DNA from: Candidatus Aminicenantes bacterium
GTDB lineage: Bacteria > Acidobacteriota > Aminicenantia > Aminicenantales > Saccharicenantaceae
Length of the DNA stretch: 64,000 nucleotides
Assembly: GCA_034679465.1 (NCBI GenBank)
Contig: JAXDAV010000075.1
Coordinates: 12,912 to 76,911, forward strand
Direction: 5' to 3'
Each line of letters starts with the position of its first letter. The stretch's first letter is position 1. The notes under the pieces were generated by a model. That model saw nothing but the letters and a program-made list of their open reading frames with translations. It was not told the origin of the DNA and did no database searches. Below are positions 4,941 to 63,232 of the stretch, in pieces. The position numbers and the translations under genes were made by a program.

Positions 4941-13381
<8,441 letters not shown>

Positions 13382-14450: not shown

Positions 14451-16550
14451 ATGCGGTCATACCCGATCGAGAAAGTACGGAACATCGGCATCATGGCCCA
14501 TATCGACGCCGGGAAGACGACCACGACGGAGCGAATCCTGTTCTACACGGGTATGACCTACAAAATGGGCGAGGTGGACGACGGGACGGCCGTGATGGAT
14601 TGGATGGTCCAGGAGCAGGAGCGCGGGATCACCATCACCTCGGCCGCGACGACGTGCGCTTGGCGTGACCACCGTATCAATATCATCGATACGCCGGGTC
14701 ACGTGGATTTCACCGCGGAGGTCGAGCGCTCCCTGAGGGTGCTCGACGGCGCGATAGCCATACTGTGTGGAGTTGGCGGCGTCGAACCGCAGTCCGAGAC
14801 AGTGTGGCGCCAGGCCGACAAGTACCGGGTCCCGCGGATCGTGTTCATCAACAAGATGGACCGAGTCGGGGCCGACCCGGAACGGGCGGTCCTCATGCTG
14901 AGGACGCGGGTGGCGGCCAAGCCTCTGCCGATCCAGATTCCCTTAGGCAGGGAAGACGGGTTCCGCGGCGTGATCGACCTCATCGAGCGGAAGGTCTACG
15001 ACTGGGGTCGGGACATCTTGGGGACGGACTACGCCGTCCGGGAGGTCGCGGAGGAGGACCGCGAGGACGTTGAACGGAAGCGACAGGACATGATCGAGAT
15101 GTTGAGCGAACACGACGACGGCCTGATGCAGAAGTACCTCGACGGGGTCGAGGTCTCCGCGCCGGAGCTGCGGAGCGCCGTCCGCCGGGCCACCCTGGCC
15201 CAGGAAGTCGTCCCCGTCCTCTACGGGGCCTCCTTCCGGAACAAGGGCATCCACCCGCTGCTCGACGCCGTCGTCGATTACCTGCCGTCGCCGGCCGACG
15301 TCCCGCCGGTCTCCGGCCGCCACCCCAAGACCCAGGCCGAGGAGACCCGCCCGGCCTCCGACGACGCCCCCTTCGCGGGCCTCGTCTTCAAGATCGCCAA
15401 CGACCCGTTCCTGGGCAGCCTGGCCTATTTCCGGGTCTATTCGGGCAAGGCCAAGGTCGGCCAGGCGATCTACAATTCGACCAAGGGCGAAGAGGAGAAG
15501 CTCTCCCGCCTGCTCGAGATGCACTCGAACAAGCGCAAGGAGCTCAAGGAGGTCCATGCCGGGGACATCGCGGCCATGGGCTCGATGAAGAACATCTCCA
15601 CCGGGGACACCCTCTGCCTCAAGAGCCACCCCGTCGTCCTCGAGTCCATCCGCTTCCCCGAGCCGGTCATCTCGGCGACGATCGAGCCCAAGACCAAGGC
15701 CGACCACGCCAAGCTGGCCCTGACCCTGGCCAAGCTCGTCCGCGAGGACCCGACGATCAAGGTCAGCCAGGACCCCATGACCGGGCAGACGCTGCTCCGG
15801 GGGATGGGGGAGCTGCACCTCGAGATCATCATGGACCGGATGGAGCGGGAGTTCGGCGTCCGGGCCAACCTGGGCAAGCCCCAGGTCGCCTACAAAGAGA
15901 CCATCCTGGCCGAGGCCGAGGCCGAGGGCAAGTACGTCCGCCAGGCCGGCGGCAAAGGCCTCTACGGGCACTGCGTCCTGCGGCTCGAGCCGCTCGACCG
16001 GGGCCGGGGCTTCGAGTTCGTCGACCGGACCCGGGGCGGCGTCGTCCCCAGGGAGTTCCTCGGCGACGTCGAGAACGGGGTCCGCGAGGCCCTCGAGGCC
16101 GGCGTCGTCGCCGGCTATCCGGTGACCGACTTCCGGGCCGCCCTCGTCGGCGGGTCGACCCACGACACCGACGCCGCGCCGGTCGCCTACAAGATCGCGG
16201 CCACGCTGGCCTTCCGCGACGCCGCCAAGAAGGCCGGGCCGGTCCTGCTGGAGCCGCTGATGCGGCTCGAGATCGTCGCCCCCGACGAATACCTCGGCGA
16301 CATCGTCGGGGACATCAACGCCCGGCGGGGCAAGATCGAGGGCCTGGAGATGCGTAGCGGCTCCCGCGTCGTCGCCATCCACGTCCCCCTGGCCGAGATG
16401 TTCGGCTACGCGACGACGCTCCGGACCCTGACCCAGGGCCGCGGCGTCTTCGCCATGGAATTCGCACGCTACGAGCGGACGCCTCCGGGCGTCCAGGATG
16501 AGATCGTCGCCCGGGTCGAGGGACGGATCCCCTTCCGGGCCGACCATTAG
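14451..16550 (+). CDS. fusA: elongation factor G (str-operon copy, divergent domain IV loops)
   Basis: [36 protein letters not shown]. Confidence 0.95.
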
Positions 16551-19474: not shown

Positions 19475-19767
19475 TCAAAGACCCTCACAAGATCATCATC
19501 CGCCCGGTGATCACGGAGAAGACGACCCGGCTCAAGGCCACGAGCGGGGTCATCTGCTTCGAGGTCGCCCGGGGCGCCAACAAGATCGAGATCAAGCGGG
19601 CCATCGAGCAGCTGTTCAAGACCAAGGTCGCCGAGGTCCGCACCCAGGCGAAGGCGGGCAAGGTCCGCCGGGTCGGCCGCCACGCGGGCAAGACGAAGGA
19701 CTGGAAGAAGGCCTACGTCCGGCTGTGCGAAGGCGAGAAGCCGATCGAATACTTCGAGGCGGCGTAA
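19471..19767 (+). CDS. rplW: 50S ribosomal protein L23
   Basis: PVITEK, ANKIEIK, WKKAYV; GTG start overlaps the rplD stop. Confidence 0.94.
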
Positions 19768-58011: not shown

Positions 58012-59183
58012 AAGCCCCGCCGCGCGCCTTCATCGGCCCGGTCATGCGGAAGGAGGTCCGCCAGATCCGGAGGGACACCCGCTCGCTTGTCTTCATGCTC
58101 CTCCTCCCGGCCTTCCTGCTCATCGTGTTCGGCCTCGCCCTGAACTTCGACATCAAGCACGTTCCCCTGGCCGTCGTCGACCTCGAGGGCAGCCGCCTCA
58201 GCCGCGGGCTGGTTGAGAAGTTCCGGACGACGGAATATTTCGACGTCAAGGCGACGCTCGACCGGACCGGGGACATCGACGACCTGATGGCCCGGGAGAA
58301 GATCAAGGCCGCCCTGGTCATCCCCCCGACCTTCTCCGAGGACCTCCTGGCCGGGCGGAGCCCCTCGGTCCAGTTCCTCCTCGACGGGGCCAACGCCATG
58401 AGCGGCACGACGGCGGCAGGCTACGCGGCGGCCATCCTGCAGAGCTATGCGCAGAGGACGACGCTCGAGGCGCTGGAGCGACGGGGAGCGGGCGGCGCGA
58501 CGCTCCCCCTCGCCACCCAAGTCCGCGTCTGGTACAACCCGGAGCTCAAGAGCGCGCGCTTCCTTCTGCCCGGCCTGATGGCCTTCATCCTCATGGTCAT
58601 CCTGACCACGTCGACGGCCTTCTCCATCGTCCGCGAGAAGGAAAGGGGGACCATGGAACAGCTCGCCGTTTCGCCTCTGCCGGCCTCGGCCCTCATCGTC
58701 GGCAAGCTCGTTCCGTACGTCCTGATCTCCCTGGCCTCGGCCCATCTCGTCCTGGGCCTCGGCGGGGTCCTCTTCGGAGTCGGGGTCAAGGGCAGCTATC
58801 TCCTTCTCCTCCTGGGCATGGTCCTGTTCCTCGTCGCCGGCCTGGGCCAGGGGCTCCTCATCTCGGCCGTCACCCGGACCCAGCAGGTGGCCTTTCTCCT
58901 CTCGGTCCTGACGACCATCCTGCCGACCTTCATCCTGTCCGGGTTCGTCTTCCCGATCCGGAACATGCCCGCGGTCGTTCAGGCCGTGACCTATCTCGTC
59001 CCGGCCCGGCACTTCCTGGTCGTCCTCCGGTCCGTCATCCTCAAGGGCGCCGGGCTCCCGGCCTTCTGGGAGCAGATGCTCCTGCTCGCCGCGTTCGCCG
59101 CCTCGACGCTGGCCCTGAGCGTGGTCATGCTCCGCCGGGGCGAAGGGCGGGGGCCGCGGCGCCGGGCGGGGAGGGCCGCGTGA
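58008..59183 (+). CDS. ABC-2 permease (YbhS-like)
   Basis: WYNPEL, REKERGTMEQL, LSGFVFPI. Confidence 0.9.
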   Translation: MKAPPRAFIGPVMRKEVRQIRRDTRSLVFMLLLPAFLLIVFGLALNFDIKHVPLAVVDLEGSRLSRGLVEKFRTTEYFDVKATLDRTGDIDDLMAREKIKAALVIPPTFSEDLLAGRSPSVQFLLDGANAMSGTTAAGYAAAILQSYAQRTTLEALERRGAGGATLPLATQVRVWYNPELKSARFLLPGLMAFILMVILTTSTAFSIVREKERGTMEQLAVSPLPASALIVGKLVPYVLISLASAHLVLGLGGVLFGVGVKGSYLLLLLGMVLFLVAGLGQGLLISAVTRTQQVAFLLSVLTTILPTFILSGFVFPIRNMPAVVQAVTYLVPARHFLVVLRSVILKGAGLPAFWEQMLLLAAFAASTLALSVVMLRRGEGRGPRRRAGRAA

Positions 59184-60307
59184 AGGCCATCCTGTCCATC
59201 CTCCGGAAGGAGTTCCTCCAGCTCCGCCGCGACCCGAAGCTCTTCCCGGTCATCTTCCTTTCGCCCGTCCTACAGCTCCTCCTCCTGGGCTACGCCGCCA
59301 ACCTCGACGTCAAGAACGTCCCTTCGGTCGTCTGCGACATGGACCGCTCGGCGGCCAGCCGCCGGCTCATCGACGAGTATCTGAACTCCGGTACTTTCAC
59401 GGTCGCGGCCCGCGTCGAGCGCCTGGCCGAGATCGACCGCTATCTCGACAACGGGCGCGCGGCCATGGCCTTGGTCATCCCCCGGGGCTTCGGCGGCGAC
59501 GTGGCCGCGGGCCGGACGGCGTCGATGATGCTCATCGCCGACGGCTCGGAGAGCCAGTCGGCCTCGATCGGCGTCAGCTACGGGACGATGATCGCGGCGC
59601 GACACAACCAGAGGCTCATCCTGGAGCGGCTCGAGCTGGTCCGGGGACTCGGCCCGGCGCCGGTCCTGGTCGAAGCCGAGGTCCGGGTCTGGTACAACCC
59701 GGAGCTGCGCAGCCGCAATTTCATGGTCCCGGGCGTCCTCGGCCTCATCCTGATGATCATGACCACGGTGCTCGCCTCGATCGGCATCGTCCGGGAGCGC
59801 GAGGCCGGGACGATGGAACAGCTGATCGTGACCCCCATCCGGCCGGTCCAGCTCATCGGCGGCAAGCTGCTGCCGTTCGTCGTCATCGGGCTCATCGACG
59901 CGACCTTCGTCATCGCCGTCGCCCGCGGTCTGTTCGGCGTCCCGGTCCGAGGCAGCGTGCCGCTCCTTTTCGGGCTGTCCCTGGCCTTCATGCTCAACAC
60001 CCTCGGGGTCGGCCTTTTCGTCTCGACGATCTCGCGGACGCAGCAACAGGCCATGCTGACGTCGCTCTTCTTCATCCTGCCCCAGATCATGCTCAGCGGG
60101 TTCGTCTTTCCCATCGAGAACATGCCGAAGCTCTTCCAGGCCGTGACGACGGTCGTCCCGCTCCGCTATTTTTTCGTCATCATCCGCGGCATCATGCTCA
60201 AGGGGGCGGGCTGGCGGCACCTCTGGCCCCAGGCCGCGGCCCTCCTGGTCCTGGGGACGCTCATCCTGACCCTGTCCGTCGCCCGCTTCCAGAAGAAGCT
60301 CGACTGA
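59180..60307 (+). CDS. ABC-2 permease (YbhR-like)
   Basis: KEFLQLRRD, WYNPEL, REREAGTMEQL, LSGFVFPIENMP. Confidence 0.9.
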   Translation: MKAILSILRKEFLQLRRDPKLFPVIFLSPVLQLLLLGYAANLDVKNVPSVVCDMDRSAASRRLIDEYLNSGTFTVAARVERLAEIDRYLDNGRAAMALVIPRGFGGDVAAGRTASMMLIADGSESQSASIGVSYGTMIAARHNQRLILERLELVRGLGPAPVLVEAEVRVWYNPELRSRNFMVPGVLGLILMIMTTVLASIGIVREREAGTMEQLIVTPIRPVQLIGGKLLPFVVIGLIDATFVIAVARGLFGVPVRGSVPLLFGLSLAFMLNTLGVGLFVSTISRTQQQAMLTSLFFILPQIMLSGFVFPIENMPKLFQAVTTVVPLRYFFVIIRGIMLKGAGWRHLWPQAAALLVLGTLILTLSVARFQKKLD

Positions 60308-60361
60308 CCCTCCGCCGGCCCGGGACCGCGGGAGAGGGCCCGGGCTATTCAACGACGCCAA

Positions 60362-60588
60362 TGGGGTCGGACCTCAGCTTTTGAAGCATTATCAATAAGA
60401 TAAGCCAAAAAAACAGGCTTGAATCGGCTTAAAACGGTTGTTTCAAGGCCCGAAAATGAAAAACCAGTCAGGAAAAAAAACGGAACTCTCTTAGTTTTTA
60501 TGCCAAAAACATGGGTTTTAAGCCTTTTAGACCCCAGAAATTGTAGCTATCATATTGATTTTATTCTGATTGCTGAGGTCCGACCCCA
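60362..60588. mobile_element. ~227-bp AT-rich palindromic non-autonomous element (REPIN/MITE-like)
   Basis: Perfect 17-bp terminal IR TGGGGTCGGACCTCAGC / GCTGAGGTCCGACCCCA. Inner IR GGCTTAAAAC (60426-60435) / GTTTTAAGCC (60515-60524) shares the same symmetry centre (60475). Confidence 0.75.
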
Positions 60589-60599
60589 GTTGACAGCCT
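60541..60599 (+). repeat. 59-bp direct repeat, copy 1
   Basis: TTGTAGCTATCATATTGATTTTATTCTGATTGCTGAGGTCCGACCCCAGTTGACAGCCT, identical to 61820-61878. Confidence 0.95.
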
Positions 60600-60675
60600 T
60601 CCCCTTCAATATGTAAGGTTCTGGAATATCACTTCTGCCCTAGTTTTGAAATAGTATAATTAGGAGAAACCACTG

Positions 60676-61803
60676 ATGAATAAATCAAAATCATTAGTAA
60701 CAGGACCGGCAATGTGCCTGGCGGTCGGGCTACTTACGTTATTCTCTTGGAATATCATCGAGTCCTCTGGGCGGCAAATATATATGACCGCAGAGCAGCT
60801 AATTGAGAATCCGGAGCACCCAACTAATCCGAAGGCTGGTCGTTGCTTGCGGCCGAAGGAGGTCTTTCGGCTCGCAGACAAAGGAGATGAATACTATTTT
60901 CGCTATATAGCCGACGTGAAGATTGCCCCAGATAAATCGCTATTTATTCTGGATAGTCAACAGCTCCTCCAGTTTAGCAAGGAAGGTGGTTACCTCCGCA
61001 ATTATTATAAGAAGGGTCAAGGACCGGGAGAACTTAGCCAAGCTATTGGGTTTGATTTTGCTCACGGCCAATTGGTTGTCTACAGCTTCCCTCCCCAAAA
61101 AGCTGTTTGGTTCGACCTTCAAGGCAGGCTAGTTAGGGACGTCTCCCTATCAAGATCGGGAGGCCACCTATGGTTCTATTTTTTCCAAAATGGTGCTTAC
61201 TGGTTTGTAAGAGACGATATTCCCTCGCTTACGGGAAGGACGGAGCCCGTTTTCGTTCAGCAAGCGGTCGTGGCAGTATCGGAGAACGGGGAGAGGGCCG
61301 AGAACATTACGTCATATTCTAACAAAGGCTTTGCGGTAGGCAGTCGCTATGCTTATCAAGATTCCTATGGAGTTAGGTACAAGAACCGTTACTTCATATT
61401 CTCTAATTCGCGGGAGTACATGTTACATATCTTTGACTGCGATACGAGGCGAGCATCAAGGAACGTAACTAGGAAGTACCACCGTGTGAAGCGCCCCGAT
61501 AATATTCCCCAGACGGAGATTGTCGGTGTTGATGGGAAAAAGTATCGTATGCCGGGAGCCGACTACCTAGCTGATATCCAAGGGCTGTTTGAGCACAAGG
61601 ATATGATCTGGGTTATGACCTCGACTACCGACGCCGAAAGAGGCACGCTTTTCGATGTTTTTAATCTCGAAGGGGCCTATGTTGACGCATATTGGATAAA
61701 ATGGCCCGGATCTCTCATTTCCATATCTGACGATATCATCTTTCTCAGAGAAAGAGCGGACGATGGCACGATCGCTGTGGTCGGCTACCAAATCATTGAA
61801 TAA
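60676..61803 (+). CDS. 6-bladed beta-propeller (NHL/DUF5128-like) exported protein, low GC
   Basis: N-terminal hydrophobic anchor; LFILDS..LLQFSKEG.Y....KKGQGPGEL motif; FDVFNLEGAYV; AGGAG RBS; AT-richer codons than neighbouring genes. Confidence 0.75.
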   Translation: MNKSKSLVTGPAMCLAVGLLTLFSWNIIESSGRQIYMTAEQLIENPEHPTNPKAGRCLRPKEVFRLADKGDEYYFRYIADVKIAPDKSLFILDSQQLLQFSKEGGYLRNYYKKGQGPGELSQAIGFDFAHGQLVVYSFPPQKAVWFDLQGRLVRDVSLSRSGGHLWFYFFQNGAYWFVRDDIPSLTGRTEPVFVQQAVVAVSENGERAENITSYSNKGFAVGSRYAYQDSYGVRYKNRYFIFSNSREYMLHIFDCDTRRASRNVTRKYHRVKRPDNIPQTEIVGVDGKKYRMPGADYLADIQGLFEHKDMIWVMTSTTDAERGTLFDVFNLEGAYVDAYWIKWPGSLISISDDIIFLRERADDGTIAVVGYQIIE

Positions 61804-61819
61804 ACACTTCTTCGACCAT

Positions 61820-61878
61820 TTGTAGCTATCATATTGATTTTATTCTGATTGCTGAGGTCCGACCCCAGTTGACAGCCT
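61820..61878 (+). repeat. 59-bp direct repeat, copy 2
   Basis: Identical to 60541-60599; begins 16 nt after the beta-propeller stop codon. Confidence 0.95.
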
Positions 61879-61898
61879 CGGCGGCCCGGGTCTATGAT
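61869..61898 (+). promoter_or_regulatory. promoter for the GH5 gene, with -35 supplied by the repeat
   Basis: TTGACA (61869-61874, inside the repeat), 18-nt spacer, TATGAT (61893-61898). Confidence 0.55.
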
Positions 61899-61930
61899 GC
61901 TCCCATCCGAACGCGGAGGGAGTACATGCC

Positions 61931-63232
61931 ATGCCCAAGACCGTCCTCCTCGCGCTCCTTTTCGGCCTGACCGCCTGGGGTTGCCGGGGCGACAGGGCGC
62001 CGGCCCCGGGGGACGCGGGCGCAAAGGACCCCGCCAACGCTCCGTCAGCGGCCGCCTTCGTCACGGTCAAAGACGGCAAGTTCGTGCTGGCCGGGAAGCC
62101 TCACTCCTTCGTCGGGGCCAACTTCTGGCAGGGGATGAACCTCGGCGTCGATGGGCCGAGCGGCGACCGGGAACGGCTTCGGCGTGAGCTCGACCGCCTG
62201 CGCGATCTCGGCCTCACCAACCTCCGGGTCATGGCCTCCTCCGAGGGGCCGAACAGCGAGCCCTACCGGATGGTCCCGGCCCTGATGACCTCGCCGGGCG
62301 AGTACGACGGCAGCGTCCTGGACGGCCTCGATTTCCTGTTAGCCGAGATGGCCGCGCGCGGGATGCGGGCCGTCATGGTCCTCAACAACTTCTGGCAGTG
62401 GTCGGGCGGCATGGCCCAGTACGTTTCCTGGCACGAGAAGACGCCCATCCCATACCCGGGGGATTACGAAAGGTTCATCGCCTACGCGGCCAGGTTCTAC
62501 GCCTACCCGGAATGCCAGGGCTGGTTCCGCGACCACATCGCCATGCTCGTCGGGCGGACCAACCCCTACACCGGCCTCAAGTACCGGGACGACCCGGCGG
62601 TGTTCTCCTGGGAGCTCGCGAACGAGCCTCGCCGCTACCCCCAGAGCTGGATCGACGACACGTCCGCCTACATCAAGTCCCTCGACCCGAACCACATGGT
62701 CACGACGGGCTCGGAAGGCGCCCCTCCCGGCGAACCGACCCAGGATTTCGTCGAGACCCACAGCGCCCCGGGCATCGACTACGTCACCATCCACATCTGG
62801 CCCCAGAACTGGGGCTGGTACGACCCGAAGCGCCCGGCCACCTACAAGACGGCCGAGCCGCGGGCCGTCGCCTATTTCGAGAAGCACGCGAAAGAAGCGT
62901 CGGCCATGGGCAAGCCTCTCGTCCTCGAGGAGTTCGGCCTGGCCCGGGACTGGGCGACCCGGAAAAACAATCTCGATCCGGCTTCGACGACGGCCAACAA
63001 GGACCTTTACTACGCAGCCCTCTACAAGCTCGTCGAGGACTCGATCGCCTCTGGCGGCCCGGCCAGGGGCGACAACTTCTGGGCCTGGGCGGGCGAAGCG
63101 AGGCCGGGTCTGTCCTGGGTCGGCGACCCGCCCCACGAGCCGGCCGGCTGGTACTCCGTCTACGACGCCGACGCCTCGACCCTGGCCGTCATCGCCGGGC
63201 ACGCGAAGAAGATCGCGTCGGCGGGCCGATAG
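61931..63232 (+). CDS. GH5 beta-mannanase/mannosidase-like lipoprotein
   Basis: Lipobox AWGC; NNFWQWSGGM, WELANEPR (acid/base), HIWPQNWGW, LEEFG (nucleophile), GDPPHE. Confidence 0.85.
   Translation: MPKTVLLALLFGLTAWGCRGDRAPAPGDAGAKDPANAPSAAAFVTVKDGKFVLAGKPHSFVGANFWQGMNLGVDGPSGDRERLRRELDRLRDLGLTNLRVMASSEGPNSEPYRMVPALMTSPGEYDGSVLDGLDFLLAEMAARGMRAVMVLNNFWQWSGGMAQYVSWHEKTPIPYPGDYERFIAYAARFYAYPECQGWFRDHIAMLVGRTNPYTGLKYRDDPAVFSWELANEPRRYPQSWIDDTSAYIKSLDPNHMVTTGSEGAPPGEPTQDFVETHSAPGIDYVTIHIWPQNWGWYDPKRPATYKTAEPRAVAYFEKHAKEASAMGKPLVLEEFGLARDWATRKNNLDPASTTANKDLYYAALYKLVEDSIASGGPARGDNFWAWAGEARPGLSWVGDPPHEPAGWYSVYDADASTLAVIAGHAKKIASAGR

Follow-up and report, generated by a model that had tools for sequence, protein, structure and literature searches.

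How did a single gene of foreign composition come to lie between two exact copies of the end of a mobile repeat? That question is raised by a locus within a 64,000-nucleotide (nt) stretch of DNA from a Candidatus Aminicenantes bacterium, referred to here as the window, which corresponds to positions 12912-76911 of contig C75 in that organism's genome assembly (G000; 3.08 Mb in 82 contigs). At that locus, a 227-base pair (bp) element with inverted ends is followed by a gene encoding a DUF5128 six-bladed beta-propeller protein, and then by a second copy of 59 nt that comprises the last 48 nt of the element and 11 nt of its flank. A preliminary description of the window had regarded this arrangement as a candidate integron-like cassette scheme, in which the gene entered, and might leave, as a circle recombining at the element end. 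The analysis presented here leans, by a modest degree, toward a one-off capture of foreign DNA during the repair of a break at a processed element end, and not toward a cassette system. The evidence that carries this answer is the native promoter sequence within the duplicated flank, the sharing of the element's ends with a gene for an HUH/Y1 transposase, and the recurrence of small duplications of the same order at other ends of the family.

The duplicated element end and the promoter beside it

The exact direct repeat occupies positions 60541-60599 and 61820-61878, its two copies being 1279 nt apart and 100% identical. It is surrounded by the following features, in which GC denotes guanine-plus-cytosine content.

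59180-60307, + strand: ABC-2 type transporter permease (ybhR-like), the native left neighbour (Pfam ABC2_membrane_3, E 2.5e-43)
60362-60588, no strand assigned: 227-bp, probably non-autonomous terminal inverted repeat (TIR) dimer or REPIN-like element, corresponding to the left (L) half plus the right (R) half of a RAYT-like gene unit
60362-60378, + strand: left terminal 17-mer TGGGGTCGGACCTCAGC (L arm), an exact match that includes the near-palindrome GGGGTCGGACCTC
60572-60588, + strand: right terminal 17-mer GCTGAGGTCCGACCCCA (R arm) of the full element, an exact match
60541-60599, + strand: direct-repeat copy 1, the element's last 48 nt plus the 11-nt flank GTTGACAGCCT, contiguous with the full element
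60600-61819, + strand: low-GC foreign insert (X) of 1,220 bp, with 76 nt upstream, one open reading frame (ORF) and a 16-nt tail
60676-61803, + strand: DUF5128 six-bladed beta-propeller gene, 375 amino acids (aa), with an N-terminal hydrophobic segment (Pfam PF17170)
61820-61878, + strand: direct-repeat copy 2, a partial R arm (48 nt) plus the 11-nt flank, contiguous with native DNA
61869-61898, + strand: native sigma-70-type promoter of the GH5-like gene (TTGACA, 18 nt, TATGAT), agreeing with the consensus at 11 of 12 positions
61931-63232, + strand: GH5-like glycoside hydrolase, the native right neighbour (weak Pfam Cellulase match, E 0.0012, below the cut-off)

The terminal 17-mer GCTGAGGTCCGACCCCA has three exact matches in the window (60362-60378 on the - strand; 60572-60588 and 61851-61867 on the + strand) and a single further match, with three mismatches, at 19630; when up to three mismatches are allowed, approximately 0.51 matches are expected by chance, and four were reached in none of 100 shuffles. 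The GC content is 0.37-0.52 over positions 60300-61900, as against 0.65-0.75 in the flanks. The 59-nt exact repeat, the 17-nt inverted ends and the low-GC propeller gene are thus all present where the preliminary description had placed them, and its characterization of the entire element as a palindrome holds for the terminal 17 nt, which are perfectly complementary, and not for the remainder: the 41-nt arms are 76% complementary, and the self-complementarity of the interior (0.59, versus 0.58 in shuffles) displays no excess. As single-stranded DNA the whole element nevertheless folds better than its shuffles (z -4.67). No Rfam family matched positions 60250-61950 at E <= 1.

A search of 24 genomes of the same genus established the state of this site in the absence of the element. 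In eight of these congeners (G022, G001, G015, G009, G014, G004, G005 and G010) the permease and GH5 genes lie 17-48 nt apart, as measured between alignment ends, and in two more they appear to be adjacent; their DNA identity to the window's genes is 76-88% for the permease and 78-86% for GH5. In seven congeners the two genes are separated by 2.5-5.5 kb of DNA that holds other genes of high GC content (at loci that include L022, L024, L026, L027, L030 and L031), so that the space between permease and GH5 is variable even without the element. The element arm was found at none of the 11 congener loci that were read, and the propeller gene is absent from the site in the congeners compared. Empty sites therefore exist in congeners, which lack both element and gene; the empty-site allele anticipated in the preliminary description, with the element but without the gene, was found neither in the k=31 contigs of four public sequencing runs nor among JGI metagenome contigs, and the same was true of a circle junction.

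In all 11 congener loci displayed, native conservation starts exactly at GTTGACAG and runs to TATGAT, and homology to the congeners resumes at window position 61868, directly after the CCCCA of repeat copy 2. Since the conserved sequence starts at the -35 box, the 11 flanking nt of the 59-mer correspond to the native -35 region of the GH5 promoter; and since copy 2 abuts native DNA, and copy 1 abuts the full element, the repeat represents a true 59-nt duplication of element-plus-promoter sequence, with 1,220 foreign bp situated at its joint. The duplication rebuilt the GH5 promoter, and the neighbouring gene's promoter sequence accordingly survived the insertion intact. The suggestion that copy 2 might be an independent, truncated insertion of the repeat does not survive these comparisons, because non-element flank is duplicated along with the arm, the other copies of the element are only 70-82% identical, and homology to the element stops at 60588.

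The insert itself is a single DUF5128 ORF, lacking terminal repeats and an integrase, with an AGGAG sequence positioned 9-10 nt ahead of its ATG. Its product matches the Pfam '6-bladed beta-propeller' model DUF5128 with an E value of 4.7e-7 (29.7 bits, cut-off 22.9), and a search of the PDB returned a weak match to an NHL propeller (E 0.0031). The description of the gene as foreign is borne out: the GC content of the insert is approximately 0.48 compared with 0.66 for the genome, no second copy exists in G000 (where its paralogues are 22-29% identical), and congeners lack it at this site. The best homologue of the protein is 62% identical (P0002, from a large protein collection), with values of 39% for the best homologue within the genus and 49% within the class (339 genomes); scans using peptide patterns found no locus for either X or P0002. 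Some of the class-level homologues, in the same order (family f6), reside on contigs of 41-47% GC, which makes a lower-GC relative a plausible donor.

A second low-GC DUF5128 gene was observed on contig C7 (14877-15887, - strand), where it starts 38 nt from an element at 15926-16151. A 12-nt repeat that surrounds this gene and element (C7 positions 14863 and 16149) was considered and set aside, as shifted controls showed such 12-mers to arise by chance at a rate of approximately one in 94 termini.

The repeat family and its transposase gene

The window's element is one member of an extensive family. Within G000 the terminal 17-mer has 94 matches at up to two mismatches (71 of them exact), which pair into 30 L-R pairs with a spacing of 191-328 nt, mostly 209-215, the remainder being solo ends. 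BLAST searches of the genome recovered about 25 full-length copies, 226-227 bp long and 70-82% identical, together with many right halves of approximately 90 nt; the partial copies number about 30. A comparison of 25 copies gave mutual identities of 0.99 for the termini and 0.68 for the interior; the consensus fold consists of the terminal 17-bp stem only, within which GGGGTCGGACCTC forms a near-palindrome of 13 nt, and interior self-complementarity averages 0.64 (0.58 in shuffles), corresponding to a weak hairpin. The copies occupy AT-rich dips between native genes of high GC content at third codon positions (GC3), and clusters of them are found on C7, C37, C67, C35 and C58. At least one end, at up to one mismatch, was found in 31 of 41 other genomes of the genus, with G000 at the top of the list (89 ends), and a reversed-pattern control yielded none in all 42 genomes; the same ends are also present in metagenome-assembled genomes (MAGs) labelled Aminicenantes, Aminicenantia or Acidobacteriota.

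No GTAG is conserved in the conserved termini, and the GTAG at 60543 is not kept among copies. Among 23 aligned copies, no flank was found to be shared across the two element ends, as a target-site duplication would be. An origin as a miniature inverted-repeat transposable element (MITE) derived from Tn3 was examined as a candidate, the terminus resembling the Tn3-family inverted repeat, and was rejected given the lack of a DDE_Tnp_Tn3 (PF01526) match in G000 and of a target duplication.

On the outside of the termini, GTCAA occurs within 17 nt of 16 of the 94, compared with 228 of 20,000 random 17-mers, and the same GTTGAC adjoins the terminus in two unrelated contigs, which suggests a preference for a target or for an extended end; such a preference may account for the position of the window's element on a -35 box. 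A 20-mer that spans terminus and promoter was found at two unrelated loci only. One of these (L085, positions 6250-6390) is a contig of 44% GC labelled Desulfobacteraceae, with an element-like right half ending in CCGACCCCAGTTGACAG; the other (L086, reverse strand, first 80 nt) is a metagenome contig in which the perfect palindrome TGTCAACTGGGGTCCGACCCCAGTTGACA is located beside tandem repeats of GGCCCCGGTTGAYG. On contig C17 (19630-22041), an L arm and an R arm lie 2.4 kb apart around two ORFs, of which one has an N-terminal SAM-like integrase domain only and the other an XRE-type helix-turn-helix domain.

The preliminary description had further called for an HUH/Y1 transposase flanked by the same arm, and such a gene exists. 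Of the five Y1_Tnp (HUH) matches in G000, that at C7:203-1147 (314 aa; Pfam Y1_Tnp, 25.1 bits against a cut-off of 23) has a right half-element 50 nt downstream, which provides the 3' arm in this genome. Its orthologues, at 63-72% identity (G051, G010, G004, G049, G042:C38, G052 and G023), place the association beyond a single assembly: all seven of these close orthologues have an L arm on the upstream side of the gene and an R arm on its downstream side (with three mismatches in the L arm of four), and none of three paralogues (48-50% identity) has the arms. In G051, G010 and G004 the gene is located between element positions 1 to ~103 and ~132 to 226, that is, between the two halves of the element, from which it follows that the 227-bp element derives from that unit and lacks its gene. 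All 11 homologues of the protein retain the HUH and Tyr motifs. With one match in G000 at E <= 1e-20, the gene is single-copy there, and its position is syntenic: in G010, G051, G004, G052 and G023 a distance of 11-16 kb separates it from one and the same conserved block. On C7, 14 element ends are found at distances of up to 16 kb from the gene. A sequence search of the PDB returned no match for the protein.

None of the five Y1 matches is on contig C75, other recombinase families not having been searched for in the window. The remaining matches comprise a second HUH/Y1 transposase-like ORF at C47:277-1257, whose flanking 44-bp direct repeats are unrelated to the arms studied here, and one each on C34, C64 and C73.

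Origin of the duplication and its insert

Duplications at the ends of this element are not confined to the window. Five termini in G000 are followed by a gap-free tandem copy of k nt of flank plus m nt of the start of the arm, with k ranging from 8 to 11 and m from 1 to 12, as follows.

C7:10070: end duplication, k 10, m 12
C67:12223: end duplication, k 11, m 9
C58:59274: end duplication, k 8, m 12
C74:8111: end duplication, k 9, m 5
C67:17964: end duplication, k 10, m 1

An irregular triple tandem duplication of element terminus and flank (CTCTAATGGGGTCGG...) was observed at C67:12165-12240. At loci from other genomes, end duplications are present at 10 of 78 arms (k 6-12, m 0-6), a count that leaves out an eleventh case inside a tandem-repeat tract; in controls they were found at 1 of 214 and 2 of 78 shifted anchors, and at 8 of 3000 random anchors. 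The order in every case is full arm and flank, then partial arm and flank, then native DNA. The repeat in the window has the identical order, with k 11 and m 48, and on account of that order and the similar k it is interpreted here as the product, on a larger scale, of the end duplication that recurs at other termini. A second outside copy of 10 nt of flank plus 5 nt of arm was found within 8 kb of four of the 94 termini, three of these copies being adjacent (20-22 nt) and the fourth being the window's, at 1279 nt; among local repeats of at least 35 nt and at least 95% identity across the genome, the window's alone covers an element end and its flank.

Long direct repeats of other kinds were also noted in G000. 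A 141-bp repeat on C14 (5139-5279 and 8961-9101, 97% identical), a duplication of an aspS-like gene's 3' end, lies on both sides of 3.8 kb of low-GC DNA in which there are three ORFs but no integrase; a 74-bp repeat on C74 (93425-93498 and 95876-95949) consists of the 5' part of a tRNA-Val gene plus upstream DNA, and encloses one 699-aa ORF without a Pfam match; a 338-bp repeat on C27 (27964-28301 and 29269-29606, 97% identical) runs from the end of a native gene into the first part of a 350-aa ORF of low GC content, with more low-GC DNA beyond; and a 179-bp repeat on C32 (179881-180059 and 181367-181545) lies in a low-GC region that includes an ORF with YD/RHS-like sequence, as judged from its translation only. 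A general mechanism of insertion with long direct repeats was rejected, since only one of 101 low-GC islands (that on C14, with 80 nt exact) is flanked by an exact repeat of more than 13 nt, in a count that excludes repeats explained by short local repeats and in which the window's own repeat falls just outside the search frame.

The sequence of events that we favor would begin with a non-autonomous 227-bp element, formed from the ends of a RAYT/TIRYT-like gene unit of approximately 1.1 kb and served in trans by the enzyme of that unit, one copy of which would have inserted immediately ahead of the GH5 promoter's -35 box. In a later, probably single event, 1,220 bp of foreign DNA carrying the DUF5128 gene would have been joined at the right end of the element, with the concomitant duplication of 48 nt of arm and 11 nt of flank. 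The trigger may have been a nick or break that arose some 10 nt beyond the terminus during end processing and was probably made by the Y1 enzyme; fill-in or strand-displacement synthesis, followed by rejoining, would then yield the duplicated end. Ku is present in the genome, so end joining is possible. The same process, proceeding without an insert, would produce the small end duplications seen elsewhere, and here a foreign fragment would have become trapped at the joint.

Several observations weigh against this account. It concerns one event only, so that its mechanism is extrapolated, and the inner breakpoint, at 48 nt, is located far beyond the 0-12 nt of the small duplications. No conserved sequence was found at the outer breakpoints, at which the Y1 enzyme would cleave. 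The C7 protein scores 62.6 bits against the NCBIfam model REP_Tyr_transpos (NF047646), below the equivalog cut-off of 80, and the upstream arm of its gene is not seen in G000 because the contig begins 202 nt upstream of the gene. The 1,220 bp fit the 1,128-bp ORF tightly, with 76 and 16 nt to spare, which mildly favors a cassette-like unit or strong selection. Finally, the order of flank, repeat, X, repeat and flank depends upon the original assembly, as read-derived contigs at k=31 break at the 59-mer.

The alternative that retains the most force, although it appears unlikely, is an illegitimate insertion unrelated to the element, in which a fragment was ligated into a staggered double-strand break that lay near the element by chance or through the fragility of an AT-rich hairpin. 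The presence of Ku and the lack of terminal repeats, or of any other copy, of X would accord with such an event, as would the three other low-GC inserts that are accompanied by long direct repeats of native DNA away from elements (on C14, C74 and C27). The topology of the repeat and its 11-nt boundary, however, match those of end duplications that are enriched at termini (five in G000, against 8 of 3000 random anchors), and we know of no staggered breaks of 59 nt from ordinary repair.

A recurrent cassette, in which the 1,279-nt unit would be excised by Y1 cleavage as a circle (possibly single-stranded) and re-integrated at element ends, is considered improbable. The unit is compact (76 nt, ORF, 16 nt and the 59-nt end) and its direct repeats are 100% identical, the Y1 enzyme is available in trans, the 11-nt outer breakpoint falls inside the recurrent range of 6-12 nt, and a second low-GC DUF5128 gene lies 38 nt from another element (C7:14877-15887). 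Against these points, the predictions of the preliminary description regarding recurrence were not borne out in the data searched: an insert is found between an end and its duplicate at only one of 94 termini; the genes between clustered copies, which might have formed arrays of repeats and genes, are native (GC3 0.8-0.95) and conserved in congeners; the arm is present at none of 11 congener propeller loci and none of six loci of class-level homologues; and the loci in other MAGs are plain element pairs. Of the 59 nt, moreover, 31 belong to the variable interior of the element and 11 to the host promoter, so that any such circle could have come from this very locus only.

The read-derived contigs bear upon the two remaining alternatives. 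Public reads from four runs of one study from which this DNA may derive, kept as contigs at k=31, gave in every run the same four pieces: A (up to 60570), X (60570-61849, 1,280 nt), a 59-nt unitig and B (from 61849), with no contig in the four runs bridging the 59-mer. Depths in the four runs were 7.4, 23.3, 15.4 and 20.1 for A; 9.4, 18.1, 18.4 and 17.7 for X; 20.6, 32.1, 32.4 and 35.8 for the 59-mer unitig; and 8.6, 23.5, 17.2 and 21.8 for B (mean flank depth 8.0, 23.4, 16.3 and 21.0), values that fit a single X and two 59-mers in each genome. Since such contigs break at the 59-mer, an integrated form and an empty site accompanied by a free 1,279-bp circle look alike in these data. The 59-mer had no exact match among JGI metagenome contigs.

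A Campbell-type entry, in which a circle of X already carrying the 59-mer, derived from the identical locus of a sibling cell, was integrated by homologous or site-specific recombination so that the repeats are att-like, is quite improbable. The repeats are exact, and the depth of X divided by that of its flanks (1.17, 0.77, 1.13 and 0.84) gives a weak hint of gain and loss in the population, although these are per-contig means and are not counted as evidence; such an entry would only move the question of how the first duplication arose to another place, no integrase is encoded by the insert, and 59 nt is short for a RecA-dependent crossover. An assembly artefact, whereby a loop at the 59-mer was threaded once without a chromosomal X, or the repeat was collapsed or expanded, is the least probable of all, for although the pieces of all four runs stop at the 59-mer, X and its flanks co-vary in depth, the 59-mer unitig is close to their sum, other branches were not seen, and the locus-specific sequence held by the 59-mer implies that X is in any case joined to DNA of this locus on both sides.

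If the favored account of a one-off repair accident is correct, the locus provides a tidy example of the capture of a foreign gene beside a mobile repeat, and nothing more. A more far-reaching idea, to which we assign a low likelihood, is that the ends of the TIR dimers are working recombination sites of the HUH transposase, which would nick about 10 nt outside, duplicate the end, splice in foreign single-stranded DNA and re-place a 1,279-nt circle at other ends; this would amount to the acquisition and movement of single genes driven by RAYT/TIRYT enzymes. To our knowledge, gene acquisition or movement has never been shown for this class of domesticated transposase. Clear footprints of the reaction by which RAYT/TIRYT repeats are copied are not described in the accessible text of three relevant papers (PMC3733652; PMC3337134; bioRxiv 10.1101/2021.07.10.451892). 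The locus and its family provide two leads on that reaction: (i) recurrent end duplications that are bounded 6-12 nt beyond the terminus; and (ii) a whole foreign gene at such a joint. Taken together, these point to the enzyme's cut site, and suggest that domesticated elements may occasionally help in the uptake of genes.

Comparison with known systems

The lack of a target-site duplication among the aligned copies, and of a PF01526 match in the genome, distinguishes the family from MITEs of the DDE type. Integrative elements are bounded by att direct repeats at tRNA genes or gene 3' ends, and the window resembles them in its exact direct repeats of host sequence around low-GC cargo, a likeness shared in the same genome by the tRNA-Val (74 bp) and aspS-like 3' end (141 bp) repeats; it differs from them in that the insert lacks an integrase, and in that the repeat consists of a mobile-element end and a promoter box, rather than a conserved gene end. 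Integron cassettes comprise a compact ORF followed by an imperfect palindromic attC site with the core GTTRRRY. The window likewise displays one compact ORF followed by an imperfect palindromic site, at which single-strand recombination is conceivable, but it has one unit only, with neither an array of foreign promoterless ORFs nor sites in the same orientation, and its core, GTTGACA, does not fit GTTRRRY.

The resemblance to REPIN-RAYT systems is closer. As characterized by Bertels and Rainey (PMC3337134; bioRxiv 10.1101/2021.07.10.451892), REPINs are extragenic, present in tens of copies, and built from two conserved inverted ends, each with a short palindrome of about 14 bp, and a less conserved spacer, the whole element forming a hairpin; the RAYT transposase occurs as one vertically inherited copy, with the same ends on either side and a cluster of elements around it. 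The window's family shares the conserved inverted ends, the spacer, the extragenic location and the tens of copies, and its Y1 gene is likewise single-copy and syntenic, with the same ends and nearby elements. The differences are several: the elements are 226-227 bp long, against approximately 100 bp for REPINs; their interior is shared, at 68% identity, and forms hairpins only weakly; they lack the GTAG tag that, according to PMC3733652, REPs (repetitive extragenic palindromes) have at one end; and the 314-aa protein falls under the NCBIfam cut-off for RAYTs.

Among the matches listed in a search of the literature on Aminicenantes repeats and on RAYTs in Acidobacteria, no description of this particular repeat family was found. 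The closest counterparts are the TIRtrons, or TIRYTs, which were described by Di Nocera et al. (2013, BMC Genomics, PMC3733652) as RAYT-like genes flanked by long TIRs that share the motif GGGGWSAS, some of the TIRs forming moderately abundant repeat families and one sharply defined TIRYT group being found in Acidobacteria. The present family differs from them in its Aminicenantes-type lineage, with 89 ends in G000, and in its end duplications and captured gene, of which the accessible text of PMC3733652 makes no mention. It agrees with them in two respects: a RAYT-like HUH/Tyr gene is flanked by long TIRs and not by GTAG REPs; and the repeats occur as 30 dimers, solo ends and clusters, in the manner of TIRtron TIRs that are found as singles, dimers and groups. 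For the GGGGWSAS motif, GGGGTCGG gives a match at 7 of 8 positions. Because the same ends flank a RAYT/TIRYT-like gene, the 227-bp element can be regarded as a REPIN-like TIR dimer of a TIRtron-type family, and hence as an element of a known kind, for which the TIRtron/TIRYT class appears to be the best fit in the literature.

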